64,000 bases of DNA, from the IMG/VR virus record IMGVR_UViG_3300025572_000450. One strand, written 5' to 3'. Under the pieces are notes generated by a model. That model saw only the letters and a program-made list of their open reading frames with translations, was not told the DNA's origin and made no database searches. The DNA comes from an uncultured virus (IMG/VR IMGVR_UViG_3300025572_000450) (lineage: Duplodnaviria; Heunggongvirae; Uroviricota; Caudoviricetes). Within the stretch, counting starts at the first letter, position 1. Every line of letters begins with the position of its first letter. Positions 2,836 through 25,193 of the stretch are shown piece by piece. The position numbers were made by a program, and so were the translations under genes.

Positions 2836-2849
2836 GCCTTTAGCCCTTC

Positions 2850-2882
2850 AGACTTCGCCCTTTTTTAACGGGCGAAGTCTTC
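2850..2882 (+). terminator. Hairpin after the basic-peptide gene
   Basis: AGACTTCGCCC ... GGGCGAAGTCT inverted repeat. Confidence 0.55.
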
Positions 2883-3090: not shown

Positions 3091-3585
3091 ATGCCTAAGT
3101 CTCAGACATCAGATAAAAAAATCAAAATCCTAGAGCGACAACTCAACGCGCTCAGTCTACGCCGACAGGGTGGCGATTACGAAACAATTGCCACTCAAAT
3201 GCGCTCCTTACCTGATGTCTCGCCAAAGTACAACCGTTCTCAAGCATATAAAGATGTTCGAGCTGCCCTTGATCGTTTGATCAAAGAAACAAAAGAAGAA
3301 GCTGAACATTATAAACGCTTGCAATTGGAGCGACTTGATGAAATCTTTGTAGGCGTATATCAGCATGCTATCAAGGGTGATGCGACTGCAATTAGTCGCG
3401 TCCTAGCTCTTATGGAAAAAATGGATATGTACCATGGAATCAGCACCAGCAACACCTCTTCAGCGCCTCGTGGAGCTAGTGTGAGTGTCACTACTTCAGG
3501 AGGTACAACCGAGCAGATCAAAATTACTGAAGTGCTTGTTGAGCTGCATGGTGATCCGCACAGAACAGATCCAAATGAGGAATGA
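3091..3585 (+). CDS. Terminase small subunit
   Basis: HTH-like N-terminus (LSLRRQGGDYETIA); lies directly before the large subunit. Confidence 0.7.
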   Translation: MPKSQTSDKKIKILERQLNALSLRRQGGDYETIATQMRSLPDVSPKYNRSQAYKDVRAALDRLIKETKEEAEHYKRLQLERLDEIFVGVYQHAIKGDATAISRVLALMEKMDMYHGISTSNTSSAPRGASVSVTTSGGTTEQIKITEVLVELHGDPHRTDPNEE

Positions 3586-3591
3586 CGCAGA

Positions 3592-4938
3592 GTGCTCCAA
3601 CTTCCAAAAAAAATCCCTCAGATCTGGTCTATCAATGGTTCGCAGCTCAAGCTTTCCTTTCACCCAGGTCAATCTCGTGTTTGGCAAAGCAATCGACGTT
3701 TTGTCGCTATGCTTGCAGGAACGCAAGGAGGAAAGACTTCATTTGGCCCATGGTGGCTTTGGCGCGAAATTCTCAGAAATGGCTCTGGAGACTATCTAGC
3801 AATCACAGCTAGTTTCTCGCTTTTTCAACTCAAAATGCTTCCTGTGATGCGAGAAGTCTTTGAAAGCATTCTCGGGATTGGGAGATACTGGGCTGGAGCT
3901 GGTGTTATTGAACTTGCAGATCCATCAACTGGCAAGTTTTGGGCTGATCGATCCGATAGCCGAATGTGGGGCCGCATTATTCTCCGATCCGCAATGTCAA
4001 AAGGCGGCTTGGAGAGTACAACTGCACTAGCTGCTTGGCTTGATGAAGCTGGCCAAAGCGCATTTACACAAGAGACTTGGGAAGCAATTCTCCGCCGTCT
4101 TTCGTTGGTGCAAGGCCGAGCATTAATCACAACTACGTTGTACGAAACGCAAGGCTGGTTAAAGCGGCTGACTGATCGATGGGAAGCAGGCGATACAAAC
4201 TACGATGTCATTCAATTCGATAGCACACAAAACCCTGCATTTAGCAAAGAGGAATTCGAGCGTGCTAAAGAAGAAATGGCTGACTGGCGCTTTGAGCTGT
4301 TCTATCGTGGCCGATTCGTTAAACTGCCTGGCCAAATTTACGATCTGCCAGACGATCAAGTGGTACGACCCTTTCCGATCCCCAAGCACTGGCCGCGCTA
4401 TGTTGGTATTGACTTTGGAGCTATCAATCAAGCGCTTGTGTGGCTTGCTTATGATCAGCATGGGGAACGAGGCCGACCAGATAGCTACTACATTTATCGT
4501 AGTAGTCTCAGTGGGAATAAAACAACCGAAGAACACTGCTTAGAGAATCTGGCATATACCCGTCGCGTATTGCCTGATGGAGAAATCGAGATTCTTGAGA
4601 ACGTACATGGATGGTATGGCGGCGCACCTGGGGAGCAGCAACAGCGTTGGGATTGGAATAATTACGGCATTCCTGTAATGCGTCCAGCTGTTAGCGATAT
4701 AGAGAGTGGTATCGATCGTGTTACCAAACTATTAAAACAAAAAAGACTATTTGTTTTTAGTGATCAAACTGATCTAATAACGGATTTTCGAGGTTACAGC
4801 CGCGAAATGGATGATCAGGGCAATGTGTTTGAAACAATCCGAGACAAAAACAAATATCACAAATTAGATTGCGTTCGCTATGTCATAAGTAGTGTAGTTC
4901 CTTCCAATTTGGTATACGCACCTAATCTTTATAATTAA
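3592..4938 (+). CDS. terL: Terminase large subunit (phage 1)
   Basis: Walker A AGTQGGKT, Walker B WLDEAG, RNase H-like GIDFG and HKLDCVRY. Confidence 0.9.
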   Translation: MLQLPKKIPQIWSINGSQLKLSFHPGQSRVWQSNRRFVAMLAGTQGGKTSFGPWWLWREILRNGSGDYLAITASFSLFQLKMLPVMREVFESILGIGRYWAGAGVIELADPSTGKFWADRSDSRMWGRIILRSAMSKGGLESTTALAAWLDEAGQSAFTQETWEAILRRLSLVQGRALITTTLYETQGWLKRLTDRWEAGDTNYDVIQFDSTQNPAFSKEEFERAKEEMADWRFELFYRGRFVKLPGQIYDLPDDQVVRPFPIPKHWPRYVGIDFGAINQALVWLAYDQHGERGRPDSYYIYRSSLSGNKTTEEHCLENLAYTRRVLPDGEIEILENVHGWYGGAPGEQQQRWDWNNYGIPVMRPAVSDIESGIDRVTKLLKQKRLFVFSDQTDLITDFRGYSREMDDQGNVFETIRDKNKYHKLDCVRYVISSVVPSNLVYAPNLYN

Positions 4939-4949
4939 GGTTAACCTCT

Positions 4950-6320
4950 ATGGCTACTAACCAACAATTTACGGCAACTGGCCGCCCTCCAATGATCGGG
5001 CAATGCCTGACGCTCCAAGAGTGGCTTGCCTATATCGAAGGTTATGAACTGCCAGTAAGCTGCACTCGACTTGTATTGCACCACACCTATGTGCCAAACC
5101 AAGCGCAGTGGAATGGCATCAACTCGATGCGCGGCATGCAGCGCTACTATGCAGGCTTAGGCTGGTCGGCTGCCCCCCACATTTATGTTGCTCCTGACGG
5201 TATTTGGCTCTTTACACCGTTAGATACTGTCGGCGTTCACGCTGGAAAGGGTAATTCAGGAAACACCAACGGTGCCTTTTGGTATTCAATCGGCCTAGAA
5301 ATGGTAGGTGACTTCGACAAAGTACGCCCATCGGGAGCGGTCTGGGAACAGACCAAAGCAGTAATCGGCAGCATCTCACGTAAAACGGGGATTGAGCCTC
5401 GTAAGCTCGTTTCGTTCCATCGTGACTACACTAACGAGAAAAGCTGTCCTGGCTGGGCTATAACTAAAGAGTGGGTTTGGGGCGAAGTTGAAGCGTGGCT
5501 AAAGCAGACCCAAGAAAAAAAGATGTATCACGTCATCGCTACAGTCGCTCCAATTTACGAAGCACCAAGCATATTGGCTCCGATCGCATGGTCGGGTAAA
5601 GCTGTGATGGGCCATGGCAATACATTTGAAGGCATTGATCAAAACAATGGCTTCGTCTGGCATACAGGAGGAATAGGCTTTGTCGAAAAAAGTCGCATTT
5701 CGCTTGAAAATGCTACAACCTTTACGGAATACGATAGCATCTTTGGTTTTCCTTCAGCAAGCTTCGATACTGTTTGCAAATTTATATTAAATCGAGGATC
5801 AGCTTACGTCCCCTTTGATGTTAAGGTCATCGTTGGCCACATGTTTGACATCGCAACTCCAGTCAACGTAGATCCAATCGTTGTGGCAGCACAATCAATT
5901 CATGAAACAAGTGATCAGGCCGACGATGATCCAGAGCTTGAGCCGTTCTCTAGCTATTGGGCGCTCCGGCCCCGTAGGAATTCGGCAGGCATTGGGGTGA
6001 CGGGCGCGCCTGGTGCTGGTGTTTCCTTTCCGAGCTGGAAAGATAGTATCGAAGCTCAGGTCGGGCGTTTGTTGCGCTACTTCTTGAAAATCGGAGAAGG
6101 TACTGCGGAGCAAATAGCCTTGATGGAAACAGCTCTCAAATGGCGCGATTTGGATATGAGAGCTTGGGGTAGCTGTAGGCATGTTAAACACCTCGGCGCG
6201 ATCCACAACCCTGCAAATGCGGGTTTGCCGCGTGAAAGGTGGGTCGCAGGTTGGGCATGGGATGGCAAGGAATATGGGAAACGAATAGCTGATCTAGTCA
6301 ATGCTATTCGGAACACATAG
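4950..6320 (+). CDS. Endolysin: N-acetylmuramoyl-L-alanine amidase plus C-terminal glucosaminidase-like domain
   Basis: LVLHHT, APHIYV, HAG, SIGLEMVG, FHRDY, KSCPG; C-terminal AQSIHET. Confidence 0.85.
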   Translation: MATNQQFTATGRPPMIGQCLTLQEWLAYIEGYELPVSCTRLVLHHTYVPNQAQWNGINSMRGMQRYYAGLGWSAAPHIYVAPDGIWLFTPLDTVGVHAGKGNSGNTNGAFWYSIGLEMVGDFDKVRPSGAVWEQTKAVIGSISRKTGIEPRKLVSFHRDYTNEKSCPGWAITKEWVWGEVEAWLKQTQEKKMYHVIATVAPIYEAPSILAPIAWSGKAVMGHGNTFEGIDQNNGFVWHTGGIGFVEKSRISLENATTFTEYDSIFGFPSASFDTVCKFILNRGSAYVPFDVKVIVGHMFDIATPVNVDPIVVAAQSIHETSDQADDDPELEPFSSYWALRPRRNSAGIGVTGAPGAGVSFPSWKDSIEAQVGRLLRYFLKIGEGTAEQIALMETALKWRDLDMRAWGSCRHVKHLGAIHNPANAGLPRERWVAGWAWDGKEYGKRIADLVNAIRNT

Positions 6321-6334
6321 ATATTCGCTAAGCA

Positions 6335-6871
6335 ATGATCGACGAAGAGGATAAGCCGCTTTTCGCTCTGGTCATGACGATAGGCGGTACGCTTCTCGCA
6401 TTACTTGCTGCGATCATTGGCGTCAATCCATACGAACGACGGATTTTTCTAGTCTTACTTTTTGGCCTGTTTTTCTGGAATATTCTGTCGCTAGTCAACT
6501 TTCTTGATCGACGCTTTGCTAACTGGTTTAGTTACGGCCTTGAGATCTATTTTCATAAGGTCAGCTATTGGAATGGTCTTTATCGATTAGAAAATCAGAA
6601 GCGCTTAGAAACCGAACAAAAGCTTGAAGAAGAAAAGCTTTATGTTGCCGAACTTACACAAGAGCTACGAAGCTTAAGAGGGCAAGAACGAGAACACAAA
6701 AACAGGTTAGCTGATCGCGAGCGTGATTTAGCAGCTGCACGAAAGCATATCGAGGATGTACATCTAGCTGCTCAAGAAATGCAGGCCGAGATAAATCGCC
6801 TTCGTGCTGAACTTAATCATTACAAACAACGACAGTCGAGGTTCGATGATGAAGCTACTGGCTCAAGCTAA
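6335..6871 (+). CDS. Lysis-cassette membrane protein with coiled coil
   Basis: Two N-terminal hydrophobic helices; clear homolog of 55908-56540. Confidence 0.7.
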   Translation: MIDEEDKPLFALVMTIGGTLLALLAAIIGVNPYERRIFLVLLFGLFFWNILSLVNFLDRRFANWFSYGLEIYFHKVSYWNGLYRLENQKRLETEQKLEEEKLYVAELTQELRSLRGQEREHKNRLADRERDLAAARKHIEDVHLAAQEMQAEINRLRAELNHYKQRQSRFDDEATGSS

Positions 6872-12496: not shown

Positions 12497-12513
12497 TCGA
12501 GCTACCCTAAAAG

Positions 12514-12551
12514 AATAAGAGCTACCTCTGGTTCAAGAGGTAGCTCTTATT
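12514..12551. terminator. Bidirectional terminator hairpin
   Basis: 16-bp perfect stem AATAAGAGCTACCTCT/AGAGGTAGCTCTTATT between convergent ORFs. Confidence 0.8.
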
Positions 12552-12552
12552 A

Positions 12553-12954
12553 TTATTGGCGTGTTATTACTATACAAGCCGCCGTACAAACTTGTTCAAG
12601 ATCCACACGACAAAATCGAATAATTGACGTTGGCTTTCTTCCTTGACCCGCTCTTGGACTTTTTGGGAGCACACGCTCATGCACTGGCCGATATTGCTGG
12701 CGATCCAGTGCTTCAGCACGTTGATTTAATGTATCTGCTAATGTCCTCAATTCGGCTGCCAACGTTCGCAGCTGCTTTGGTGTTCGCGCTTCTATAATCA
12801 GGGAATTGATAGGCTTGCTACGATCCATGCCTCTTGGTCTTTCGACCTGTGTGGGGCTGGATGCGGCCCTCTTTAAAGTCTTCGGGGTTGGCGAGAATTT
12901 TGTCTCGCCATTCAATTCATGCTCGATGGCGCTCATTGTGATATTCTTCCCCAT
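12553..12954 (-). CDS. Hypothetical protein
   Basis: 133-aa ORF ending at the terminator. Confidence 0.45.
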   Translation of the reverse strand: MGKNITMSAIEHELNGETKFSPTPKTLKRAASSPTQVERPRGMDRSKPINSLIIEARTPKQLRTLAAELRTLADTLNQRAEALDRQQYRPVHERVLPKSPRAGQGRKPTSIIRFCRVDLEQVCTAACIVITRQ

Positions 12955-13095
12955 TCCGCTTGTGAGCTTTTACGTCGCGCTCAAAACTTTTGAGTGCAAC
13001 AGCTATTCATCTATCTTGATGATCCGCAACACTTCGTCTACAGGTACAAGTGTATGCCCATATTGAGTTGCTCCATATTGACGATGTTACGTTGA

Positions 13096-13514
13096 GTTAC
13101 ATTATAATTCATTTTTACAAAAGTGTCAAATATGTCGTTTAATTTTAAAATAATGACAAATATATCATAAAATATTTACAGTAGTGTTTTGATGTTACAA
13201 ACCCAGTAACCCTATTAAGAAGCCTAGTTACAATCATGGTTACAAAAGGTTACAAAATCTTGTCTTTCCTGTAACCCGTGTATAACCCTTTGGAAAGCCC
13301 TAAAAAAGTCTTTACAAGTCGTAGTTACAAGTTCAAGTAAAAAAAATATGTATTAAGGTTTTTTGGTCTCTATAGAGTGATCTCACTAAAATAAATATAT
13401 ATAGTATAAGTCTTGTAACCTTGTAACTATACATATACATATATCTATATAAGCCTTTCTAATGCCTTAAACTGTGGTTACAAAAATAGTTACAAAAAGT
13501 TACAACCAGTTACA
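13096..13514. repeat. AT-rich non-coding region with about 13 GTTACA/TGTAAC repeats; candidate replication origin
   Basis: GTTACA at 13096, 13194, 13227, 13239, 13249, 13324, 13477, 13489, 13499, 13509; TGTAAC at 13270, 13414, 13422. Confidence 0.7.
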
Positions 13515-13661
13515 AAACCTGTTTCTTTTTCTCTTATCCTGTTTCAAGTTTGGTTATGGAGAAAACAAGCCCTTATTTTATTCAAGATTGCCTCTTGATA
13601 TTCTAGTTTTAAGGCAGTAGAATGCCTTGAAAAGCTTATTAGATGCGTGTGACAACGATAA

Positions 13662-13964
13662 TTGTGTCATCGTTACACTATTGATATGCAATTGAAACAT
13701 ATGGCAAAGAAACAAGATGGTATAGTCATTGCCCCCAACGAGCGCAATGTACCGCGTGGCCCTAACAACATGCAGGGCGTCGAACGTTGTTGTTCAATGT
13801 GTCTTCAATGGAAGGCAAGGCTGGAGCATTTCAGGCAAGAGATCGATAATGCGTATTCGATGACTTGCAAGGCGTGCGAAGGGATCGAAGGGAACAAAGA
13901 GACGCTGGCCGATGGGCCGATCATAGCGCGTCGGCGTGTAGACACGAAAGAAGGTACTCAGTGA
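13662..13964 (+). CDS. Small CxxC-CxxC zinc-finger protein
   Basis: CSMC ... CKAC. Confidence 0.55.
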   Translation: MCHRYTIDMQLKHMAKKQDGIVIAPNERNVPRGPNNMQGVERCCSMCLQWKARLEHFRQEIDNAYSMTCKACEGIEGNKETLADGPIIARRRVDTKEGTQ

Positions 13965-14125
13965 CCTACGAGCAATTGTTCGCGTATGGAAAGCTAGGCA
14001 TCGTGATCCGATTGTCAAAAAACGAAGCTGGCATTCAGATACCAGGAGAAGAAGACATTCGTTGGATACCGCTTACAAACCTTCAAGAATTTGCTGCTGG
14101 CGTATTAGAGGTAGTGGACGAATAA
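13961..14125 (+). CDS. Hypothetical 54-aa protein
   Basis: GTGA overlap with the upstream stop; AAGG RBS. Confidence 0.5.
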   Translation: MTYEQLFAYGKLGIVIRLSKNEAGIQIPGEEDIRWIPLTNLQEFAAGVLEVVDE

Positions 14126-14260
14126 GTCGGCTAAACTGTAACAACTTTTTTGGGAATATGCTATAATCAGATTGACAAATTTGTCGCATAAATCCAGTGA
14201 ATTGGCAAATATGTCATCAGGCCGAGATCCGATCAAACAGTACCTGCCGCTTTAGCCCAC

Positions 14261-14370
14261 TGCGCTCACAATGATGTTATATCTTGGCTCATCTTCGAGG
14301 TATAACTGGCCTCTTAACTCCTGAGAGGTCGTGAAATCAAAGGTAGTAAAATATGCCTGTTGTGAGCGCA
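14261..14370 (+). ncRNA. Candidate structured RNA (multi-stem junction)
   Basis: 11-bp closing stem plus three internal hairpins whose G-U pairs fit only the + strand; TGcTATAAT promoter near 14159-14167. Confidence 0.5.
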
Positions 14371-14393
14371 CTAATCACAAGTGATGAGGACAC

Positions 14394-14421
14394 ATGAGAT
14401 TACTTGTATGTAAGCACCTTT
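14394..14421 (+). pseudogene. 5' part of a secreted or membrane phage gene interrupted by the element
   Basis: GAGGA RBS, ATG AGA TTA CTT GTA TGT AAG CAC CTT T; joins in frame to 21630. Confidence 0.85.
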
Positions 14422-14457
14422 GAGGGTGCGTCTTAGGGATTTTCAATTCCGGAAAAT

Positions 14458-14496
14458 ATCGGCATAGTTTGGTATGTATTTACCGGCTATGCCGAT
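14458..14496 (-). terminator. Hairpin at the end of the recombinase remnant
   Basis: ATCGGCATAG / CTATGCCGAT inverted repeat. Confidence 0.6.
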
Positions 14497-14775
14497 TTTT
14501 CATTCTTTGTGGTGGATGTAGAAACCGGTGGATCAAACTCGCCAATGCAGTTCCATACAATTTTGATACGCTGTACCCGCCTGCCATCAATGCGCTCTGC
14601 TTTGTACACATAGATCTTTTCAACGAATTCCCGGATAATTTCCGCTGTGAGTTCCTTAATGTCCGTATACTTTCTTACCAGTGAGAGGAAGTGGTCAACA
14701 TTGAGAGCGCTTTCCTTATCCTCTGTCATAATGGATTTCAGTTCCGTTACTCGCTTCTCAAGAGCCTGCTGCTCG
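14487..14775 (-). pseudogene. C-terminal remnant (DUF4368-like) of a TnpX-type large serine recombinase
   Basis: EQQALEKRVTELKSIM..FLSLVRKYTDIKELTAEIIREFVEKIYV..QRIKIVWNCIG; no catalytic N-terminus. Confidence 0.8.
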
Positions 14776-14990
14776 TGGTCTCCCCGTATCCGATTGCAGC
14801 AGAAGCGCTCCGGCTTTCACCATCGTGGCGGCTACGCTGCAAAAGTATCTCTTGCGGGTGGACTATTCAGTTGTCAAGGAACCGGAATTTAAGTGGTTTT
14901 ACAATTTGTTCTTGTTTTCAATGCCATTGTATAATACAATGTAAGTGATGTTAAATTTTCATCGATTACAATAACGATTACATTCAAAGG

Positions 14991-15950
14991 ATGATTGCCA
15001 TGAAAAAACTGCCGGTAGAAAACCTCGGCTTTGTTGAAATTGGCGGCGCTGGAGAGATGATATATAGGGCTGTGCGATTTCCCGAGTATGTTCCGGACTA
15101 TGACGATGACGGCGAAATAATTAAACCTATCTTCACAGGGCTTCATGCTCCGGAAAGCGGTACTGATTATTCGCTTACCGGACAGGAGCTATTGGTTAGT
15201 CTGTGTAATCTTTACGGGAAATTAAATAACCCAGACAGCACTGTTCCGGTTACAGATGCCGTCTGGGATTGGTGCAGAAACAATATTCATCCTTACAACA
15301 TAGACAGTCTTTATGAAATGCTGGTTAGCGAGAAGTTTGCGCATATAACATACATGGATTTGATTCAGAAAGATGCCACATTCTATGTAAATCAATTCAT
15401 AAAGGATTTATGCGGTCTGGGTACTGTATTTGAGCTTTACTTTGCCTTGAGAAGGGTTAAATACTACGGAGAGATTGACTGCGCAAGGAATCTTTATTAT
15501 GAAGGCAGGCTTTGCGACAGCCTCGCTTTTCTTGAAAGATACCGACAATACGAGGATGACGAGGAATACAAGGCCCGTATATTAGAGAATTACAATGAAC
15601 ACATATCCCAAGTGATTGATATGTTCCCGGACTTCCGTATGAGGCTGAAATTGGATAAGAAAACCAGGAAAGTGATGTACGGAGCAGACATTCAATCGGT
15701 ATTCGATATTTGCTGGTACACCTTTTCCAGAATGGTAGCTGACGTTGCGCCGCCGGTGGATGAAGATTTAAACTATTTTGAATCGCAAGGCTCCATACTT
15801 TCATGCCTTGCCTGCGGGAAATACTTTGTGCGGCATTCAAGCCGCCAGCTATATTGTAATAGTTGGGATTGCCAAGCCGAGCGGAATCGCAGAAACAGAC
15901 GAGCCAGCTATGCCCGGAAGAAAGCCAAGGAAGCAGGTAACAAGAAATAA
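14991..15950 (+). CDS. Protein with C-terminal CGNR-like zinc finger and basic tail
   Basis: CLACGKYF..QLYCNSWDC..RNRRNRR. Confidence 0.7.
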   Translation: MIAMKKLPVENLGFVEIGGAGEMIYRAVRFPEYVPDYDDDGEIIKPIFTGLHAPESGTDYSLTGQELLVSLCNLYGKLNNPDSTVPVTDAVWDWCRNNIHPYNIDSLYEMLVSEKFAHITYMDLIQKDATFYVNQFIKDLCGLGTVFELYFALRRVKYYGEIDCARNLYYEGRLCDSLAFLERYRQYEDDEEYKARILENYNEHISQVIDMFPDFRMRLKLDKKTRKVMYGADIQSVFDICWYTFSRMVADVAPPVDEDLNYFESQGSILSCLACGKYFVRHSSRQLYCNSWDCQAERNRRNRRASYARKKAKEAGNKK

Positions 15951-16090
15951 AAATTGAACTCGCTACCAGCCACTTGGTATAAGTGTGACGTTGTAAATGC
16001 TTTCGGATAAAACTTATTCATGTATTTATTGAAAATTTAACAGAAATGTGATATCCTTTGTATAACTTCTCTTAATTGGAGGTATAGCTT

Positions 16091-16312
16091 ATGGCTGTAA
16101 GTTATAAGAAGTTGCAACACTTAATGATTGATAGAAATATATCTAATGCTGAACTTATGCGTAGAGCAAACATATCAGCAAATATAATCACGAAAATTAG
16201 AACAGGCCAATATATAGCGTTAGATAAAGTGGAAAGCATTTGTTTGGCAATGTGCTGTACACCTAATGATATTTTGGAGTTTGTTCCGGACGAGGAGCAG
16301 ATGAAAAAATGA
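16091..16312 (+). CDS. Cro/C1-type HTH regulator, putative controller of the RM-like operon
   Basis: MAVSYKKL..ANISANIITKI..ICLAMCCTPNDILEF; GGAGG RBS. Confidence 0.85.
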   Translation: MAVSYKKLQHLMIDRNISNAELMRRANISANIITKIRTGQYIALDKVESICLAMCCTPNDILEFVPDEEQMKK

Positions 16313-17013
16313 CGAAACAGGTAAAATCCAAGAAGCGCGTTGCTGAGCATGGCGAGGTTTTTACAGCCGAACGCGAGGTTAAAGCCATGTGCGACTTGGT
16401 GAAACAGGAAACAGAAAGAATTGACTCGCGATTTTTGGAGCCTGCCTGCGGTAATGGAAATTTCCTTGCAGAAATACTTTCAAGGAAACTGGCTGTTGTG
16501 AGGAAAAAATATAAAAAAAGCCCTTATGATTGGGAGCGCAATTCGCTTCTGGCGCTGGGCAGCTTATATGGAGTGGATTTACTGATCGACAACTGTATTG
16601 AATGTAGGCAGCGGCTATTTGAAATGTGGGATAAGGAATATAAGGCTATATGTAAAAAAGAGTGCAATGATGACACCCGCGAGGCTGCCAAGTTTATCCT
16701 CTCCCGTAACATCGTTTGCGGTAATGCGTTGACACTTAAATGTGTCGATGAAAATGGAAAGGATACTAATGAACCTATAGTTTTTTCCGAATGGACTTTT
16801 CCTTTTAATGATGCTATGATGCAACGCAGTGATTATACCTTTGCAGAACTGCTAGCTGCTGAAGAGGAAAGGCCTAAACGTAAAAAGAAAAAAGACGAGC
16901 CTGAGCAAATATCACTCATGCTAGATGAAGATATAAGAGAGGCACCATCGGATGAAGGAGTGTTCCTGAAGAAATACATCTCACATTATAGGAGGATACA
17001 GGAAAATGGCTGA
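16309..17013 (+). CDS. Truncated N6-adenine MTase-like subunit (SAM-binding half)
   Basis: GEVFT and FLEPACGNGNFL present; no NPPY/DPPY catalytic motif. Confidence 0.8.
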   Translation: MTKQVKSKKRVAEHGEVFTAEREVKAMCDLVKQETERIDSRFLEPACGNGNFLAEILSRKLAVVRKKYKKSPYDWERNSLLALGSLYGVDLLIDNCIECRQRLFEMWDKEYKAICKKECNDDTREAAKFILSRNIVCGNALTLKCVDENGKDTNEPIVFSEWTFPFNDAMMQRSDYTFAELLAAEEERPKRKKKKDEPEQISLMLDEDIREAPSDEGVFLKKYISHYRRIQENG

Positions 17014-18547
17014 TACAGGATTATTTAATAATGTATACAATCCGGACGTGCTGTCCTGCCTTGCTAATCTCTCAAACGATGAGGTTTTTACTCCACCCGA
17101 CGTAGTGAACGCTATGCTTGATATGCTGCCGCAGGAGCTCTTTCAGAATCCTCATACCACCTTTCTTGATCCTGCCTGCAAGACTGGTGTCTTTCTTCGT
17201 GAAATTGCCAAAAGGCTTATCAAAGGACTGGAGACGCAGTTCCCAGATTTACAGGAGCGTATAGATCATATTTTTCATAATCAGCTTTATGGTATTGCTA
17301 TTACAGAACTCACCAGTTTGCTTTCACGCAGGGGAGTTTACTGCTCCAAATACCCGAACAGCGAGTTTTCTGTAAGTTACTTTGATGATGATCACGCACA
17401 AGGAAATATTCGCTTTGTGCGTACTAAACATACGTGGAAAGAAGGTAAATGTATATATTGCGGAGCTACTCAAAGCGAGTACGATAGAAGTACAGATCTA
17501 GAAACATATGCTTATGAGTTTATCCATACAAAAAAGCCGGAGGAAATTTTCAATATGAAGTTTGATGTAATAATATCAAATCCACCTTACCAACTGAGTG
17601 ATGGTGGTTATGGAAAAAGTGCTAAACCTATTTATCAGCTTTTTGTGGAAAAAGCTATTCAACTTAATCCACGCTATCTATCAATGGTAATACCTTCTCG
17701 ATGGTTCTCAGGCGGACGTGGTCTTGAGGATTTTAGACGTACAATGCTTTCGGATAAACGTATTAGTACCCTTGTTGATTATGAAAATTTTAAAGATATT
17801 TTCCCAGGTGTTGATCTTGCAGGTGGTGCTTGTTATTTTTTATGGGATAGGGAACACGAAGGAATGTGTCAAGTAATCAATCGTGCAAATGGAGCTGATG
17901 ATGTAGTAGATACCAGATATCTAGATGAGTTTGATGTCTTCATAAGATCGAATAAAGCTCTTTCCATCATCCGTAAAGTTTTGAAAAAACATACTGGTCC
18001 ATTCATGGACAAAACAGTTTCTGCGTCAAAACCATTTGGCTTGCGGACTTTCTATGAACCACAGGAACAAGGTATTCCTTGCCAGTTTATACAGCGAATA
18101 GGACTAAAATATGCTAATCCAGTTGATGTAACTGATAATTTTAATCTACTAAACAAGTGGAAGTTTTTGGCGCCACGTTCACCTATCGCTGGTCAAACTG
18201 ATTTTTCAAAACCGGTAAAATTTTATTATGATGGAAACACTAAAATTGTTCCACCTGGTACATGTTGTACAGAATCTTTTATTGTTTTATTTGCTTCTGA
18301 CTCAGAAGATGAGGTACAATCCTTTAAAACATATCTTTATACTAAAACTGTTCGATTTCTTTTACTTCAATGTGTTGTTTCACAGGATGTCACCAGAGAG
18401 AAATTTAAGTTTGTTCCTGCTATGAATCATTATGAAGGTGTGTATAGCGACCGTCAATTATGTGATTTATGGGGTATAACTGAAGATGAATGGAAATACA
18501 TTGATTCTAAAATCAGTGAAGTGGACGGTGATGACGATGTCAACTGA
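17006..18547 (+). CDS. Eco57I-like amino-methyltransferase with C-terminal TRD
   Basis: DEVFTP, FLDPACKTGVFL, DVIISNPPY, IPSRW. Confidence 0.9.
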   Translation: MADTGLFNNVYNPDVLSCLANLSNDEVFTPPDVVNAMLDMLPQELFQNPHTTFLDPACKTGVFLREIAKRLIKGLETQFPDLQERIDHIFHNQLYGIAITELTSLLSRRGVYCSKYPNSEFSVSYFDDDHAQGNIRFVRTKHTWKEGKCIYCGATQSEYDRSTDLETYAYEFIHTKKPEEIFNMKFDVIISNPPYQLSDGGYGKSAKPIYQLFVEKAIQLNPRYLSMVIPSRWFSGGRGLEDFRRTMLSDKRISTLVDYENFKDIFPGVDLAGGACYFLWDREHEGMCQVINRANGADDVVDTRYLDEFDVFIRSNKALSIIRKVLKKHTGPFMDKTVSASKPFGLRTFYEPQEQGIPCQFIQRIGLKYANPVDVTDNFNLLNKWKFLAPRSPIAGQTDFSKPVKFYYDGNTKIVPPGTCCTESFIVLFASDSEDEVQSFKTYLYTKTVRFLLLQCVVSQDVTREKFKFVPAMNHYEGVYSDRQLCDLWGITEDEWKYIDSKISEVDGDDDVN

Positions 18548-21458
18548 TTTTTTTGCACAACGACCTGTGATTGTACCAACCATCTATGTGTATGAACTCA
18601 TAGGCGTAGCCTCTCACAAGGGATACATAAAAATCGGATATACTGAACGAGATGTTGCTACCCGTATCAAGGAGCAGCTGCACACTGCTGCTGTTCCGTT
18701 TAAGATCCTCTATCAAGAGAGTGCCATGAGGGAGGATGGCTCTGTCTTTACTGATAAGGATATACATCGAATTTTGGAGCGACGAGGTTTCAGACAGCTC
18801 AATGCAGTCGCTGACGATAACGAGTGGTACAACTGCTCCCTAAATGATGTCAAGGCGGCTATTGTTGAGCTTAAAACCGGAAAAATCACTGCTGATAGTC
18901 GGACAGCTGCATTCCGTATGCGTCCGGAGCAGCAGGCAGCCGTAAAACGCACGGTAGAGTATTTTACTAAGGCCAAATACGACGAGCCGGACAGAGCTCC
19001 AAAATTCTTGTGGAATGCCAAGATGCGCTTTGGTAAGACCTTTGCAGCCTATCAGCTTGCAAAAAAGATGGGCTTTAAGCGCGTGTTGGTACTTACCTTT
19101 AAGCCCGCTGTCGAATCCGCATGGCGAGATGATTTGCGCTCTCATGTTGATTTCGAAGAATGGCAGTTTGTTTCCAATAAGGACGCGCACAACAATAACG
19201 TTAATATCGATCAGGCCTACGCGAAGTGTGATAAAAAGAAGCCTATCGTTGTTTTTGGTTCCTTTCAAGACTTGTTGGGTACCAATGAGAATGGTGGCAT
19301 AAAAGCTAAGAATGAATTTATCCATGCGGAAAACTGGGACTTGGTTATTTTTGATGAGTATCACTTTGGCGCATGGCGAGAAAATGCCAAAAAGCTCTTT
19401 GAGAATCCTGATGAGGAAGAAATAGTCGACTTTGATATAGAGAAGTACAAGAAGGATGAGGCCGATAACGCCTATAACGAAACCTTCCTTCCCATTACAG
19501 CCAGTTATTATTTATACCTTTCTGGCACACCTTTCCGCGCCATTAATAGCGGCGAATTTATAGAAGATCAAATATATAACTGGACATATTCTGACGAGCA
19601 ACGTGCAAAGGAAAGCTGGAAAGGCCCTGGTAATCCCTATTTGTCGCTGCCGAGAATGGTCATGCTCACTTATCGGATACCGGATAGCATTCGCCAGATT
19701 GCCACGCAAGGCGAGTTTAACGAGTTCGACTTAAATGTGTTCTTTTCAGCCAAGGGTAAAGGCAAAGAGGCCAGGTTTGTTTACGAGAATGAAGTGCAGA
19801 AATGGCTTGATCTGATTCGCGGTTCATACCTTCCATCCAATGTTGATGATTTAAAACTCGGGCATGACAAGCGTCCTCCGATGCCTTTCTCTGATACACG
19901 ACTTTTGAATGTTCTAAATCATACAATTTGGTTTTTGCCGAATGTAGCATCCTGCCAAGCAATGTATAACCTGATGATGCAGAAGCAGAATGGTTATTAT
20001 AATCAGAAATATAAAATCATCGTTTGCGCCGGAACTCAAGCCGGTATCGGTCTAGATGCTCTCTATCCGGTACTACATGCCATGGGAAATCCATTGGAGA
20101 CATACACCATCACTCTCACCTGTGGTAAACTAACTACGGGTGTTACCGTAAAGCCGTGGACGGGTATCTTTATGTTGCGAAACCTAAAGAGTCCAGAAAC
20201 ATATTTCCAAGCAGCTTTCCGAGTCCAATCTCCGTGGGTGGTAAAAGATGAAGAAGGCAAAGACCTGATTATGAAAGAAGAATGCTATGTTTTTGACTTT
20301 GCGTTGGACAGGGCACTGCGGCAGATTGCAGACTATTCTTGTCGTTTGAATGTGGATGAAAGCAATCCTGAAAAGAAGGTAGCAGAGTTCATTAATTTCC
20401 TGCCGGTGTTGGCCTACGACGGCAGTACCATGCGTCAAATTAATGCGCAGGACATTCTCGACATCGCAATGGCTGGAACTTCCGCTACTCTGCTTGCAAA
20501 ACGCTGGGAATCTGCGCTACTGGTAAATGTTGACAATGACACTCTGCAACGCCTAATGAATAACAAAGAAGCTCTCGACGCTCTTATGAGCATTGAAGGT
20601 TTCCGCTCGTTGAATCAAGATATTCAGACTATCATCAACAAGTCAGAAGCGGTAAAGAAAGCCAAGAAAGAAGCCGAGAAGATGACTCCGAAGGAGAAAA
20701 AGGAAATCTCAGAAGAGGAAAAGGAATATAAGTCTCTTCGGAAGCAGATTCAGGAAAAACTCATCAAATTTGCTACCCGCATTCCGATATTTATGTACCT
20801 CACTGATTATCGCGAGCGGTCGCTCCGAGATGTTATAACTCAGCTTGAACCGGGGTTGTTCAAAAAGGTAACGGGCTTAAATGTTAAGGACTTTGAACTT
20901 CTTTGCAGCCTTGGGGTATTTAATGCAAGCCTGATGAACGATGCCATTTTTAAGTTCAAGCGTTACGAAGACAGCAGCCTTTCCTATACCGGTATCGACA
21001 AGCACGAAGGTAAAGATGTCGGTGGCTGGGATACCGTCATCAAACGCGAAGAATATGATAGACTGTTTTACAATCAACAGGCTACAATGGAATCCATCAA
21101 CTCGGCGTTCGAAGAAGCAATTGAAAAAGATGTTAAGCCCGTTGCGGCTGTGCCAAAGCCTGATCCAAAACCATCTGCTACAAAATATGTTACGGGGCAG
21201 TTTGGAATTAAGCCTCCGCTGTCGAAAGTAGCCGAGCATAAGAAACCTTATAGCACCAGCACGCAAGCCGATGAGGAAATGGAAGAGTTTGTTATACCGG
21301 AGATTTCGGAAGGCGATGCGGTTAAGCATAAGAGCTTCGGTGATGGTATAGTTACAAAGCTCGATAAAGCTGGGAAACACATTCGTGTGAAGTTTGCGGT
21401 TGGGGAAAAACTCTTCTTATTCCCAGATGCTTTCAAGCAGGGTTACTTGAAGTTGTAA
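18537..21458 (+). CDS. GIY-YIG/T5orf172-like nuclease, SF2 (ResIII-like) helicase and C-terminal Tudor-like domain
   Basis: IYVY..YIKIGYT..NEWY; AKMRFGKT; DEYH; LSGTP; QAAFRVQS; GDAVKHKSFGDGIV. Confidence 0.85.
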   Translation: MSTDFFAQRPVIVPTIYVYELIGVASHKGYIKIGYTERDVATRIKEQLHTAAVPFKILYQESAMREDGSVFTDKDIHRILERRGFRQLNAVADDNEWYNCSLNDVKAAIVELKTGKITADSRTAAFRMRPEQQAAVKRTVEYFTKAKYDEPDRAPKFLWNAKMRFGKTFAAYQLAKKMGFKRVLVLTFKPAVESAWRDDLRSHVDFEEWQFVSNKDAHNNNVNIDQAYAKCDKKKPIVVFGSFQDLLGTNENGGIKAKNEFIHAENWDLVIFDEYHFGAWRENAKKLFENPDEEEIVDFDIEKYKKDEADNAYNETFLPITASYYLYLSGTPFRAINSGEFIEDQIYNWTYSDEQRAKESWKGPGNPYLSLPRMVMLTYRIPDSIRQIATQGEFNEFDLNVFFSAKGKGKEARFVYENEVQKWLDLIRGSYLPSNVDDLKLGHDKRPPMPFSDTRLLNVLNHTIWFLPNVASCQAMYNLMMQKQNGYYNQKYKIIVCAGTQAGIGLDALYPVLHAMGNPLETYTITLTCGKLTTGVTVKPWTGIFMLRNLKSPETYFQAAFRVQSPWVVKDEEGKDLIMKEECYVFDFALDRALRQIADYSCRLNVDESNPEKKVAEFINFLPVLAYDGSTMRQINAQDILDIAMAGTSATLLAKRWESALLVNVDNDTLQRLMNNKEALDALMSIEGFRSLNQDIQTIINKSEAVKKAKKEAEKMTPKEKKEISEEEKEYKSLRKQIQEKLIKFATRIPIFMYLTDYRERSLRDVITQLEPGLFKKVTGLNVKDFELLCSLGVFNASLMNDAIFKFKRYEDSSLSYTGIDKHEGKDVGGWDTVIKREEYDRLFYNQQATMESINSAFEEAIEKDVKPVAAVPKPDPKPSATKYVTGQFGIKPPLSKVAEHKKPYSTSTQADEEMEEFVIPEISEGDAVKHKSFGDGIVTKLDKAGKHIRVKFAVGEKLFLFPDAFKQGYLKL

Positions 21459-21515
21459 CAGACTTCTGGGTGTTAGCAATACTGTGGGCACGATATAGAT
21501 AATATATTCAACGAG

Positions 21516-21559
21516 AAGGACTGCACCAAAGGTTTTATCCTTCAGTGCAGTCCTTTCTT
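21516..21559 (+). terminator. Hairpin terminator after the helicase
   Basis: AAGGACTGCAC / GTGCAGTCCTT followed by TCTTT. Confidence 0.7.
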
Positions 21560-21629
21560 TGCTGTCTCCGCTTGAAGAGAGCCGGTCAAAAATTACTTGT
21601 TTTCGTAAATCCCTAAGGCCAACTCCCTT

Positions 21630-21958
21630 TAGTGGTGCTTTTTGTTTGTTTTGTGTTTATATTCTTGCTTTCTTGGCGCGAAGCTCAAACACAGGCTGCA
21701 ACACGAGAACGGATCTATTTGATCCAGAAACATCAGAGCGGCTCGATTTGGTATGTCGTTTATGGAGTAGAGAACGCCACAGGCCCTATTGCAGTTGAGG
21801 GCGTAAAAAGCTATCGCGTTTACTCAGTGCAATACAATGGGCTTTGGAGCGCAACGCTTGTTGCAAGGATACATTGTGGTGAGACGCTGCGAGTCAACGG
21901 GCGCTTACTCGATCACAACTATTGCACCTATGCTCCCTTGGTGCCTGACAAGACATAA
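21630..21958 (+). pseudogene. 3' part of the interrupted gene; homolog of 56911-57363
   Basis: AATRERIYLIQ vs AAVPRIYRIQ; CGETLRVNGRLL..C vs CDSRLLLDGRVV..C. Confidence 0.8.
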
Positions 21959-22001
21959 TCTATTGCGTAACATGCTATAATGCAATTAGTCAATGTGCCT
22001 T

Positions 22002-22035
22002 GAGCGCTATCTCATCTGAGATAGGCGCTCTTTTT
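22002..22035 (+). promoter_or_regulatory. GAGC-led terminator-like hairpin in the neck-gene leader
   Basis: GAGCGCTATCTCA / TGAGATAGGCGCTC plus T-run, downstream of TGcTATAAT (21973-81). Confidence 0.65.
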
Positions 22036-22054
22036 ATTTGCTCGGGATATCGAT

Positions 22055-22612
22055 ATGGCACGAACCAGCATGCAGGCGCTGATCACGCGCCTACGACAAA
22101 TGACTAACTTGCTTGGAGATCGTTTAACGATCATCGACGATGATGAAATTCAGGAATTGCTTGATGAACATCGTGATGAATATCGAGTAGCGACGTTGGA
22201 ACCGATCGACAGGATCGAGCCAGGCGGAAAGATCCGATGGGAATCGTGGTATTCGCCTATTGGCGGCTTCTGGGAAGATAATTGTGTTTTTCAGAGCGGC
22301 AACAACTGGGAATATATCGTTCCCGTTGAGAGTGACAACCAGAACGGACGCTGGACTTTTGCTGAGCATCAGAATAGTGGCGTCTTTGTGACTGGCTTTG
22401 TCTACGATGTGTACGCAGCTGCTGCCGATCTGTGCGAACGGTTAGCCACTGGCGAGCTGCATCGCTTCGATTCTAGCGATTCCACATCGGGTATGAGCTT
22501 TCGACGATCACAAGTATTACAGAACTATCGAAGCATGGCGGATCGTTATCGAGCCAAAGCGCGTCTTCGCTATGGAACAATGATCCGCAGCGACGCAACA
22601 GGGCAGGGCTAG
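22055..22612 (+). CDS. Head-tail adaptor
   Basis: Position; DVYAAAADLCE motif. Confidence 0.7.
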   Translation: MARTSMQALITRLRQMTNLLGDRLTIIDDDEIQELLDEHRDEYRVATLEPIDRIEPGGKIRWESWYSPIGGFWEDNCVFQSGNNWEYIVPVESDNQNGRWTFAEHQNSGVFVTGFVYDVYAAAADLCERLATGELHRFDSSDSTSGMSFRRSQVLQNYRSMADRYRAKARLRYGTMIRSDATGQG

Positions 22613-22615
22613 CCG

Positions 22616-22996
22616 ATGAGTATGAATGTTCGGGCCGTAACAACCATTGAAGCAGACGATCTTGCTAACTTGCGCGAACAAATCGGTCAGACTTTGCGAA
22701 AAACTTGCGAAGTGTTGACCTACAGCTATGAGAGTGATGGTGCAGGAGGCCGCAAAAAAGTCAGCTCTGTTGCTGCTACATATGCTTGCAAGCTCGGCAA
22801 CCCCTCGCAGCGTGAATTGGAGCTAGCCCAACGCCTAACACAGAAATCGATTATGGCTGTGGTCTTGCCTTGGAACGCTGTTGTGAGCACAAAACAGCAA
22901 ATTCGGATCAATTCTGTGGTCTATGAGATCATTGAAGTCATTCAGCCCGATGATGCGGCGGCGACTCGCGTGCTTATTGCTAATTTATCGAATTGA
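22616..22996 (+). CDS. Head closure (stopper) protein
   Basis: SDGAGG, QQIRINSVVYEIIEV. Confidence 0.75.
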   Translation: MSMNVRAVTTIEADDLANLREQIGQTLRKTCEVLTYSYESDGAGGRKKVSSVAATYACKLGNPSQRELELAQRLTQKSIMAVVLPWNAVVSTKQQIRINSVVYEIIEVIQPDDAAATRVLIANLSN

Positions 22997-23403
22997 GGAC
23001 GCTCATGCCTTTAACTGTTACATCTCGCTTTCCTGAATTGATCGCAACTATTCAGCAGAATGCAGACTTAGCGGCGCAACATGCTGCTGAAGGCATGGTC
23101 GAAACAATGAAGGCATCGATGAAGGCATCGATGCGCGCACCCAGCCGCCGTGACGCTCAAGGTAAACCCGTGTCGGCCCCAGGCGAAGCTCCTGCTAGCT
23201 CTGGCGATGGCGAATTATACGAGAGCTTGCAAAGCGAAAAGATTGCTGATGGGCATTGGGCCGCCTATTCTGATAGCCAAATTGCTGCCTATCTGGAGTA
23301 TGGCACCAAGCACATGGCTCCGAGGCCGTTTATGACTCCAGCAGCAGACGAAATTGCCCCGAAATTCTTTGAGGAGCTGAAAGAGAATGTGTTCAAACTA
23401 TGA
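22993..23403 (+). CDS. HK97 gp10-like tail-completion protein
   Basis: SAPGEAPA, YLEYGTKHMAPRPFMTPA. Confidence 0.85.
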   Translation: MRTLMPLTVTSRFPELIATIQQNADLAAQHAAEGMVETMKASMKASMRAPSRRDAQGKPVSAPGEAPASSGDGELYESLQSEKIADGHWAAYSDSQIAAYLEYGTKHMAPRPFMTPAADEIAPKFFEELKENVFKL

Positions 23404-23828
23404 GCAATGAGTTTGCATTGGCTGATCGCTGGATCTATAAGACCTTATCCAGTGACCCGATTATTCAATCTCTTGCGCTTGGAGGTGTTCATGCCGAGAT
23501 CGCGCTTGATGCAGTCTCTCCCTATATTGTTTTTTGGCAACAAAGTGTAGGGAATGATCTGCCACGTATCGGTGGTGGCCGCATTTTGACCTCGCCAACC
23601 TATACGATCGCTGCGACAATTGAAGCAGAGTCATTTGAGGGAATTATAGACCTTGCTGATCGCATTGATCAGCTTCTTGATCGCAAACAGGCGACAGTGA
23701 ATGGAGGCCAGATTGTCTCCTGCACGCGCATTCGCGGCTTCCGGCGCGTGATCCCTGCCGAGGGCGGTAGCTTATATCGGCAGCTTGGTGCTCAGTATCA
23801 ATTGCAGGTTCAATCAGACTCATTCTGA
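23400..23828 (+). CDS. Tail terminator protein
   Basis: Position; SPYIVF motif. Confidence 0.7.
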   Translation: MSNEFALADRWIYKTLSSDPIIQSLALGGVHAEIALDAVSPYIVFWQQSVGNDLPRIGGGRILTSPTYTIAATIEAESFEGIIDLADRIDQLLDRKQATVNGGQIVSCTRIRGFRRVIPAEGGSLYRQLGAQYQLQVQSDSF

Positions 23829-23882
23829 TTGATATGCCAGTCATCTGCCATGAGCAGTAGTTTTTTTGAGTGAGGAATTCTC

Positions 23883-25193
23883 ATGGTAGCAGAACGAGCA
23901 ACGGTCTTTCAACGTGCTCAACTGGGCGTTGAAAGCACCCCAGGAACAGCAGTTGCAGCAACGAAGCAGCTTCAATCGCTAAGTTTTAACTTGGCGGCTA
24001 ATATCGAAACGCAGCGCATTCGGCCAGAAGGCTCGAAGTCGCCAACCGTGCAGACAGTTGGGCGTGAATGGACAAACGTACCCATTTCTGGTACACCGAC
24101 CTTTGACGAGCAGATCTATGCTTGGGCAAGCGTGCTTTGCAAACCAACGCCAACCACGGTCACGGCAGGTGTCTATGAATGGCTGTTTTCGATGCAGAAT
24201 TTTGCGGCGGATACGACCGCAACATTCACTATTGAGCATGGTAGTGCAGAGCGAGCAGCCCGTGCTAAGGGCGTTCAGTTGACCGAGTTTGGCTATACGC
24301 TGAACCGAACAGCTTGGACGCAGAGCGGCAACGCAGTAGGCCAAGAATATGAAGACGGCTTTGGGCTATCGGTTATTGCGCAGCCGACCAACCAGAAAAA
24401 CGCGATCACTATGAGTGACGTGACTGGTGGCACTTTCACGTTGACCATTGGCTCAGTCACGAGCGGCGATATTCCATACAATGCAACTCCTGCACAGGTT
24501 CAGACAGCCCTTGAAGGCATGAGTAATATTGGCGCTGGCAATGTTGTTGTTACTGGCACGGCCTTGCCAGAAGGCCCCCTAGTAATCATGTTCGTAGGCA
24601 AATTTGCTGCTACGGACATGGGCACTATCACTGCTGATACCAGCGATCTTATTAGCGATACAACACCTTCGGTGTCAATAATGCAAACTCAAGCTGGCGT
24701 GCGCGGTGGCTTCTTGCCCGTGATCCCCATGGTGCCCAGTCAAGTGGACTGCTATTTCTCGCAGACCGCCGAGGGCTTGGACTATGCCATCCCGCTCGAC
24801 TATATGTTTGAATTGAGCTGGAAGATCAGCAATCGTTTTGGCCAGTCGTGGCCGTTGCGTTCGAGCTATAAGAGCTTCCAGAGTTCGGTAGAACTGGAGC
24901 CAAAGATCGATTTGAGCTTCAAAGTCAAGTCAGACAGCAATGGTATGGCTCTGTTGAATAAGCTGCGAAACGGCGAAACGGTGTTTTTCCGTACTGTGGC
25001 AACTGGGCCACTTATTAGTGGGTCGCATACCTATAAATTCCAGCATGATACTGCGTTGAAGGTCGCTTCGATTGGTGCTCTTTCTGACAATGGTGGTGTC
25101 TATGCTGCCACCTTTAGTGCTGAAGGAGCATACGACGCAGGCTGGGGCAAAACAACCGAAGTGAAGATAATCAATACAACAGGAAGTTTGTAG
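23883..25193 (+). CDS. Major tail tube protein with an inserted accessory domain
   Basis: QLGVESTPGT N-terminus; insert GGTFTLT..IPYNATPAQVQTALE. Confidence 0.8.
   Translation: MVAERATVFQRAQLGVESTPGTAVAATKQLQSLSFNLAANIETQRIRPEGSKSPTVQTVGREWTNVPISGTPTFDEQIYAWASVLCKPTPTTVTAGVYEWLFSMQNFAADTTATFTIEHGSAERAARAKGVQLTEFGYTLNRTAWTQSGNAVGQEYEDGFGLSVIAQPTNQKNAITMSDVTGGTFTLTIGSVTSGDIPYNATPAQVQTALEGMSNIGAGNVVVTGTALPEGPLVIMFVGKFAATDMGTITADTSDLISDTTPSVSIMQTQAGVRGGFLPVIPMVPSQVDCYFSQTAEGLDYAIPLDYMFELSWKISNRFGQSWPLRSSYKSFQSSVELEPKIDLSFKVKSDSNGMALLNKLRNGETVFFRTVATGPLISGSHTYKFQHDTALKVASIGALSDNGGVYAATFSAEGAYDAGWGKTTEVKIINTTGSL

Follow-up and report, generated by a model that had tools for sequence, protein, structure and literature searches.

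The window analyzed here is the whole 64,000-nucleotide stretch of the uncultured Caudoviricetes record IMGVR_UViG_3300025572_000450 in IMG/VR, and within it a phage gene is interrupted by a block of DNA whose excised circle would measure 7,210 bp. We conclude that the insertion is natural, and the sequence of the block places it in the DUF4368 “multi-targeting” large serine recombinase (LSR) family as a decayed member. An earlier examination of the letters and predicted translations, referred to below as the sequence-only reading, had described it as a bounded serine recombinase-type element. We consider it very probable that a family element entered a pseudo-site in the phage gene and was afterwards reduced in place by a deletion at microhomology.

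Junctions and crossover register

Four uninterrupted alleles of the phage gene (P0001, P0002, P0005, and P0006) support the earlier claim that the element sits inside it. P0001, a protein of 117 amino acids (aa) from Logan, starts MRYLYVSTLVVLFVCF, that is, MRYLYVST and then LVVLFVCF, and it agrees in all of its last 107 residues with the window as read from 21635 on. A further uninterrupted allele, P0005 (131 aa), came from a protein search of Logan assemblies. P0002 and P0006 are uninterrupted at 67% identity with the same N-terminus, and P0006 carries this stretch behind a longer N-terminus. YLYVST is encoded at 14401 to 14418 of the window and LVVLFVCF from 21629, and a contiguous version occurs nowhere in the window. 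P0001 equals window positions 14401 to 14418 plus 21629 onward with one TT shared, as in a conservative insertion without target-site duplication. The features of the two junctions (left and right attachment sites, attL and attR, with arms derived from the attP of the element) are as follows.

14386 to 14420, plus strand: 5' stump of the interrupted phage gene, with ribosome-binding site GAGGA (14386 to 14390), ATG (14394), and codons for YLYVST (14401 to 14418), followed by the attL core
14419 to 14420, plus strand: attL crossover dinucleotide TT, at the join 14418/21629 demanded by P0001 and at the left edge of family conservation
14421 to 14442, plus strand: element-derived right arm of attP, TGAGGGTGCGT (11 nt) and CTTAGGGATTT, conserved in 68 attL of related loci
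21607 to 21628, plus strand: element-derived left arm of attP, AAATCCCTAAG and GCCAACTCCCT (11 nt), conserved in the related right ends examined
21629 to 21630, plus strand: attR crossover dinucleotide TT, which forms the start of the TTA (Leu) codon in the intact gene
21631 to 21958, plus strand: 3' part of the interrupted gene (hydrophobic N-terminal segment and a domain of about 90 aa), with its stop codon at 21956 to 21958

The letters at both junctions agree with those quoted in the sequence-only reading, and the ribosome-binding site that it had placed before the interrupted open reading frame (ORF) is present. The left junction runs from the ATG at 14394 through GTAAGCACC, TTT, and GAGGGTGCGT to CTTAGGGATTT, and the right junction runs from AAATCCCTAAG and GCCAACTCCC through TTT to AGTGGTGCTTTTTG and then a 108-aa ORF at 21632 to 21958.

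Related insertions also mark the ends of the element. An 80-aa recombinase tail encoded near the left end matched 79 loci at 70 to 100% identity in species-representative genomes, mostly Clostridia-labeled metagenome-assembled genomes (MAGs), and the flanks of these loci differ, which points to one recombinase lineage at many unrelated sites. In a BLASTN comparison of 13800 to 22300 with those loci, homology ended at 14411 to 14430, most often at 14419; a second homologous segment begins at 14763 and is placed 3 to 7 kb farther off in the relatives' loci. Conserved ends meeting variable flanks at a shared TT were obtained for 68 attL and 11 attR. The 68 aligned left ends share TT, then T or A, then GAGGG...CTTAGGGA (the base after TT is T in 35, A in 32, and G in 1). 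In each of the 11 right ends examined, CTCCC is followed by three or more T's in a row and then by letters that vary; this count leaves out one further end, the variant at L075, with TCAA in place of the T-run. These conserved ends bear out the earlier proposal of a serine recombinase-type TT crossover with symmetric flanking arms.

The register of that core had been placed incorrectly, as the N-terminus of the intact alleles forces a join of 14418 to 21629. We conclude that this is the natural join, with TT at 14419 to 14420 and at 21629 to 21630 as the cores. The perfect 11-bp inverted repeat reported at the ends exists (CTTAGGGATTT at 14432 to 14442 and AAATCCCTAAG at 21607 to 21617), but it lies 11 nt from the core on each side rather than 10. 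Taken alone, this repeat is not beyond chance, with 40 inverted pairs of at least 11 nt found by a repeat search of 7.45 kb, and it gains its meaning because it is conserved at the ends of the 68 related insertions. The predicted attP is a 46-bp site of the form IR(11)-11 nt-TT-11 nt-IR(11) with four T's. Since every base is conserved in serine recombination, the attL and attR end data assign two T's to the attB of the window. P0001 rules out both a 10-nt spacing around TT in attP and an empty site with four T's.

Removal of 14422 to 21629 had been said to restore a 118-aa ORF beginning MRLLVCKHLLVV..., and this did not hold: natural alleles begin MRYLYVSTLVVLFVCF, and the empty site has two T's rather than four. 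MR (14394 to 14399) and YLYVST (14401 to 14418) lie in different frames in the window, which implies that the window copy also carries one additional T at 14400/14401. The 118-aa frame closes only because this T is offset by the two surplus T's that such an excision keeps. The interrupted gene therefore has a second lesion relative to the intact alleles, which leaves its start codon out of frame. Two sequencing runs (X6 and X8) show no insertion or deletion relative to the window at 14400/14401, meaning that the extra T is common to both.

Elements of the Tn4451/Tn5397 type have GA as their crossover dinucleotide. A GA core was rejected for this family, which differs from that type in having TT: the six right junctions first examined have TTT followed by A, G, C, G, G, or T. 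We assign the crossover to TT because GA is absent from five of these six. A member in Acetobacterium carbinolicum (L075, about 9298; L130, G831:C1:1679977-1680107) has TCAA in place of the T-run at both junctions and is a family variant with a different core context.

The insertion in other samples

Among the matches listed, the phage stretch 10500 to 14800 occurs in 20 runs from 10 studies (bioreactor, compost, sludge, soil, and manure; 2017 to 2025). Logan contigs of four runs (X1, X6, X8, and X11) were aligned on 12500 to 23500. Contigs of X1, which may be the source sample, cross both junctions with 0 differences. X6, from another study, has one contig over 12500 to 16080 (58 differences and 2 gaps) and a second over 20739 to 22555, and a single X11 contig covers 20535 to 22167. 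The contigs of X8 stop at 14448 and resume at 21601, so that they reach 27 and 29 nt into the element, where depth climbs from about 12 to roughly 60; this pattern is the expected effect of a multicopy repeat on a k-mer assembler. The 11,199-bp IMG/VR record G001 is 100% identical to 20907 to 24500 in the stretch searched and, judged by its length, would reach about 32105; based on this identity, it also crosses the right junction.

An assembly or constructed chimera, in which an assembly program or a human hand had fused the block to phage DNA, had been raised by the sequence-only reading, and we reject it as scarcely conceivable. Although the element is multicopy, has contigs that break nearby (G001 ends at 20907, and those of X8 break as just described), and differs in composition from the phage, as such a join could explain, the two junctions coincide with a single point in one gene and with the conserved ends of the family. 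Contigs from the runs of other studies bridge them, and removal of the block at the TT cores yields the exact N-terminus of independently assembled intact alleles.

The element family and its autonomous relatives

The window copy retains the following at its recombinase end.

14454 to 14500: hairpin just past the recombinase stop codon (14-nt arms, 93% complementary), a probable terminator
14487 to 14729, minus strand: DUF4368 remnant of 80 aa (Pfam PF14287, E value of 3.2e-26), corresponding to the C-terminal 80 residues of a TnpW-fused large serine recombinase
14763 to 14774: internal deletion junction with microhomology ...CTGCTC, where 6.1 kb found in relatives is missing

All 80 residues of the tail are identical to the C-terminus of a 635-aa recombinase in L005, a 2.38-Mb contig of a Christensenellales-labeled MAG. 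The domains of this recombinase are TnpW, Resolvase, Recombinase, Zn_ribbon_recom, and DUF4368. Resolvase, Recombinase, and Zn_ribbon_recom are missing from the window copy, which makes it a remnant of a member and not a working member. The earlier statements that only the C-terminus of the recombinase is left and that the element is nonautonomous were confirmed: the 80-aa DUF4368 ORF is the sole recombinase remnant, and the catalytic domains are absent.

Autonomous relatives, which the sequence-only reading had suggested seeking, were found. A full relative of 13.8 kb with an intact recombinase and the same cargo (G003:C1:94209-108003, in a Christensenellales-labeled MAG) is colinear with the window element at 89 to 99% identity. 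L005 holds the 6.1 kb missing in the window, namely, the N-terminal 555 residues of the recombinase, a capsid gene (Phage_capsid, E value of 1.4e-67; HK97 type), and a D5/NrS-1-type primase-helicase. An Anaerolinea-labeled genome (G002) has, on a 369-kb contig, a member of 10.3 kb whose 565-aa recombinase ORF is intact. Across the 79 loci, the recombinase ORF has at least 450 aa in 42, is short in 13, is cut by the locus edge in 12, and was missed by the ORF pattern in 12.

The lone HK97-type capsid gene and D5-type primase beside the recombinase (L005 3102 to 9243, within G003:C1:94209-108003) are satellite-like. A helper phage and satellite relationship of the kind seen for phage-inducible chromosomal islands (PICI) or P4 was considered and set aside, since the capsid protein of the relative is unlike both capsid proteins of the window (E values of 0.76 and 1.4). 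Searches of the element against plasmids gave no match, and those against phages gave only a 74% match to the cargo.

Target sites

Across the 68 insertions, in the 30-nt stretch to the left of the core, C occupies positions -2 to -7 in 36 to 47 of the 68, and A occupies positions -9 to -18 in 36 to 63 of them. Nine of 10 rebuilt attB sites, including that of the window, fold as a hairpin with the TT in a 4- to 6-nt loop and, as a rule, A and T runs on either side; the exception is the attB of L044, which has no hairpin. Landing sites include a terminator after a tRNA gene (G004) and a terminator after parB (G003). We conclude that the family lands in the loops of predicted terminator-like hairpins, of which the phage site is a weak mimic in coding sequence. 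The rebuilt empty site of the window reads ...AAGCACC-TT-AGTGGTGCTT..., and its predicted hairpin, AAGCACC-TTAGT-GGTGCTT, has a 7-bp stem, a 5-nt loop, and a T-rich tail (-6.9 kcal/mol with DNA parameters) and lies within codons 6 to 12 of the phage gene.

14412 to 14418, plus strand: left half-stem of attB, AAGCACC, pairing with GGTGCTT at 21634 to 21640

Empty sites were also sought in family-level relatives of two MAGs with flank DNA, where matches of 66 to 86% were the only ones found, too distant for intergenic sites. The literature searched contained no paper joining serine recombinase, intrinsic terminator, and insertion site.

Deletion, order of events, and rival histories

In the history that we propose, the usual target of the recombinase would be a quasi-palindrome resembling a bidirectional intrinsic terminator (A-run, C-rich arm, TT loop, G-rich arm, and T-run). 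The start of the 117-aa phage gene would have offered a weak chance copy of this target, AAGCACC-TTAGT-GGTGCTT followed by T's, and a DUF4368/TnpW-type element would have integrated there, into codons 8 and 9, by conservative strand exchange at TT. The incoming element would have been of the 13- to 14-kb type that is intact in the Christensenellales-labeled MAG, arriving while resident in the host of the phage and carrying the recombinase, the lone HK97 capsid gene, the D5-type primase-helicase, a 319-aa gene, a helix-turn-helix (HTH) regulator, a methyltransferase, and a nuclease-helicase. Presumably after insertion, 6.1 kb between short direct repeats would then have been deleted, and with it the catalytic domains of the recombinase, the capsid gene, and the primase. 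The remainder, with both att arms, the DUF4368 tail, and a restriction-modification-like cargo, would be carried as a fixed passenger. The packing limit of a phage head would reward such a deletion, and we conjecture that the retained methyltransferase and nuclease-helicase pair benefits the phage or the lysogen.

The deletion joint of the window was absent from all 79 loci, and a 33-mer of the joint was absent from viral_contigs. Other decayed copies have end-points of their own (L017 at 14728/15753; L019, L055, and L079 as remnants of 1.9 to 3.1 kb). Decay after insertion is favored because the joint occurs in no other context and every decayed relative is unique. The window and L017 deletions (14727 to 14774 and L017 9001 to 9002, respectively) are independent, and both end within about 35 nt of the internal Met at which the 80-aa tail begins and keep that tail whole. 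This retention in both may reflect chance or something needed in cis.

The sequence-only reading held that the element must be mobilized in trans. This was not borne out, decay after insertion being simpler for a joint found in no other context. An element that was recombinase-less before entry, was moved by the recombinase of a coresident autonomous copy, and is still movable is a possible but doubtful alternative. It fits with the intact att arms, with the frequency of recombinase-dead relatives (13 of the 55 judgeable loci among the 79), and with the co-occurrence of autonomous copies, as loose contig ends of X8 and X11 at 14775 and 14769 run into the intact recombinase gene and the intact upstream module at a depth of about 60. 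However, the window's joint was found neither in the 79 loci nor in viral_contigs, the separate end-points of the other decayed copies are as expected for decay in place, and a directionality factor is generally required as well when an LSR excises an element.

We regard it as improbable that P0001-type alleles are revertants that arose by precise excision in trans, which would make the insertion older than it appears. Serine recombinases excise precisely, which would restore the site with two T's, and the intact and interrupted alleles are identical over their last 107 aa, yet the interrupted copy has the extra T at 14400/14401 and P0001 is without it. The diverged P0002 and P0006 are also uninterrupted with the same N-terminus, for which an ancestral empty site is the simpler explanation.

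Several observations weigh against insertion of a family element into a phage pseudo-site followed by decay in place. The phage target fits the family profile poorly, as its C-rich arm matches at -2 and -4 only and it has no A-run, and the attL of L042 has only two T's before GAGGG, off the TT+T/A rule (1 of 68). The empty allele is known from protein sequences alone: exact-match pattern scans of viral_contigs and metagenome_contigs yielded neither empty-site DNA nor a circle joint, although such scans cannot show absence. None of the contigs of the four runs skips the element, and these contigs show presence only; they were used in place of raw reads, and contigs through a multicopy element can be mosaic. 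Finally, the order of insertion before deletion is one that we infer.

Comparison with known systems

Passages of Durrant et al. 2022 (PMC10083194) describe a clade of multi-targeting LSRs, 63% with DUF4368 and one example with a TT core, and place TndX-like enzymes in the same clade. As portrayed there, the clade shares with the window family an LSR with a DUF4368 tail, many sites per recombinase, a TT core (LSR 2871), and no duplication beyond the core. The window copy differs from it in being without a recombinase. In addition, the 21 attB sites published there for LSR 2871 are AT-rich and not hairpin-like, whereas the target of the window family is a GC-rich quasi-palindrome with A/T runs. 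The words terminator, hairpin, and palindrome are absent from the main text of PMC10083194, and the element-end motifs are absent from its eight supplementary files; parts 79 and 82 of supplementary file 3 contain other motifs.

CIMEs (cis-mobilizable elements) and other decayed integrative remnants likewise keep att sites after loss of the recombinase and are potentially mobilizable in cis or in trans. The window element differs from them in that it interrupts a coding sequence of a phage genome and retains a cargo operon that looks complete. Tn4451/Tn4453 (TnpX) and Tn5397 (TndX) of clostridia share the use of a large serine recombinase as transposase, and a TnpW-like segment is fused in the recombinase of the relative. 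The predicted cargo resembles type III/ISP-like restriction-modification in having a methyltransferase gene followed by a helicase-nuclease gene but differs in that the nuclease domain is T5orf172/GIY-YIG-like and no curated NCBIfam cutoff was reached. In phage NatCom_35866 (PV036449.1, from human feces), a methyltransferase gene and a neighboring 975-aa gene match element positions 2603 to 6671 at 74% DNA identity (window 17024 to 21092 and PV036449.1 11159 to 15234). No serine recombinase ends were seen in that phage, with which the cargo module alone is shared.

The recombinase clade is already described, and the element adds a decayed member to it and no new kind of system. As a natural example, it illustrates a multi-targeting serine recombinase hitting a coding-sequence pseudo-site that mimics its terminator-like target, a phage that gained defense-type genes from a chromosomal mobile element and retained them once the element machinery had decayed, and a nearly identical element in genomes labeled as different phyla. 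The exact attB, attL, and attR set, together with the predicted 46-bp attP, lends itself to a direct test with an intact recombinase from the relatives. The target profile across the family is informative about site choice by “multi-targeting” recombinases and is relevant to users of integration tools.

Gene content of the element

Six genes lie between the junctions: the DUF4368 remnant listed above and the five listed here, which are followed by a hairpin.

14991 to 15950, plus strand: 319-aa gene conserved in the family (78 to 97% DNA identity in about 25 loci), without family assignment
16091 to 16312, plus strand: HTH_26 (Cro/C1-type) regulator of 73 aa (E value of 2.1e-17)
16309 to 17013, plus strand: methyltransferase-like protein of 234 aa, with weak matches in the N-terminal part only
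17006 to 18547, plus strand: Eco57I-type N6-adenine DNA methyltransferase of 513 aa (PF07669, E value of 1.2e-37; PADLOC MTase_II, 4.6e-44)
18486 to 21458, plus strand: protein of 990 aa with a T5orf172/GIY-YIG-like nuclease domain and a ResIII helicase (Pfam), a probable restriction subunit
21516 to 21555: terminator-like hairpin that follows the 990-aa gene and is conserved in relatives

The methyltransferase has the appearance of one half of a split restriction-modification pair, with the 990-aa protein as the other. The two match separate parts of one type IIG PADLOC profile (PDLC03626), the methyltransferase covering 863 to 1320 and the 990-aa protein covering 146 to 801 (E value of 3.5e-37). 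Pfam Eco57I and ResIII pass their cutoffs, and no NCBIfam model reached its cutoff for the pair. The cargo is presumably active. Across 18541 to 20731, contigs of X6, X8, and X11 share many alternative letters (140 differences in 2,191 nt in X6), which represent either other element copies or recombinant cargo in the phage copy.

The 319-aa protein had no match in Pfam, PHROGs, PADLOC, or NCBIfam and falls in the ESM Atlas into unnamed or weakly named clusters only, one of them auto-named “zinc finger CGNR.” Its C-terminus is Cys rich and basic.

Surrounding phage regions and host

The window consists of two phage-like regions, at about 1 to 41200 and 43900 to 64000, each with its own terminase and portal. 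The first encodes a large terminase (3592), a portal (8363), a major head protein (11118), and tail genes to about 41200, and the second encodes minus-strand replication genes, a lysis cassette, a terminase (57777), and a portal (58975). They have a common tetranucleotide signature (r = 0.88), with GC contents of 47% and 53%. An integrase lies between them.

42276 to 43820, minus strand: large serine integrase of the phage itself, without DUF4368 and unrelated to the recombinase tail of the element

The comparison of tetranucleotide profiles inside and outside the element that had been proposed shows a foreign composition for the element. Its correlation with the first phage region is 0.54, versus 0.86 to 0.91 for nine phage chunks of the same size, and its GC content is 42%, versus 47% for the phage.

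Matches to the large terminase were found in 9 of 401 genomes in the phylum of the Anaerolinea-labeled MAG (G002; best identity, 50%) and in 0 of 401 in the phylum of the Christensenellales-labeled MAG (G003), the sampled genomes being a small draw from each phylum. The head protein was even, with matches in 11 of 401 and 7 of 401, respectively, at 51% identity in both. When the tetranucleotides of 30 chromosomal flanks were compared with those of the phage, an Anaerolinea-labeled flank was best (r = 0.57), and two Clostridia-labeled flanks reached 0.56. A cross-phylum origin, with a Clostridia-type element in a Chloroflexota-type phage, appears plausible because the terminase leans to the phylum of G002 and the element has 95 to 99% DNA identity to a Clostridia copy, the one in the Christensenellales-labeled MAG.

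A broader scenario, speculative and on the whole unlikely, would treat terminator-loop hairpins as generic safe landing pads and host factor-free recombination as what lets the family cross phyla. A Chloroflexota-type phage would have captured a near-identical Clostridia copy, which, stripped of its mobility and capsid genes, would have been kept as a restriction-modification “moron” and ferried along, still excisable in trans.

A search of viral_contigs with the 108-aa protein for related phage loci returned only the contig of G001. In the second phage-like region, what had been called an intact homolog of the interrupted gene turned out to be a distantly related paralogue, with 25% identity across 106 aa (pairwise E value of 5e-5).

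56911 to 57363, plus strand: distant paralogue of the interrupted gene

This paralogue closes a lysis-type cassette (54717 to 57363) that has an amidase at 54717 and several small ORFs, two of them membrane-like by eye, and its position suggests that the gene family may have a function connected with the envelope. In the first region, small unassigned ORFs of low GC content (37% at 13001 to 14000) lie at 12553 to 14390, between the head genes and the interrupted gene, and this stretch looks like a moron region.

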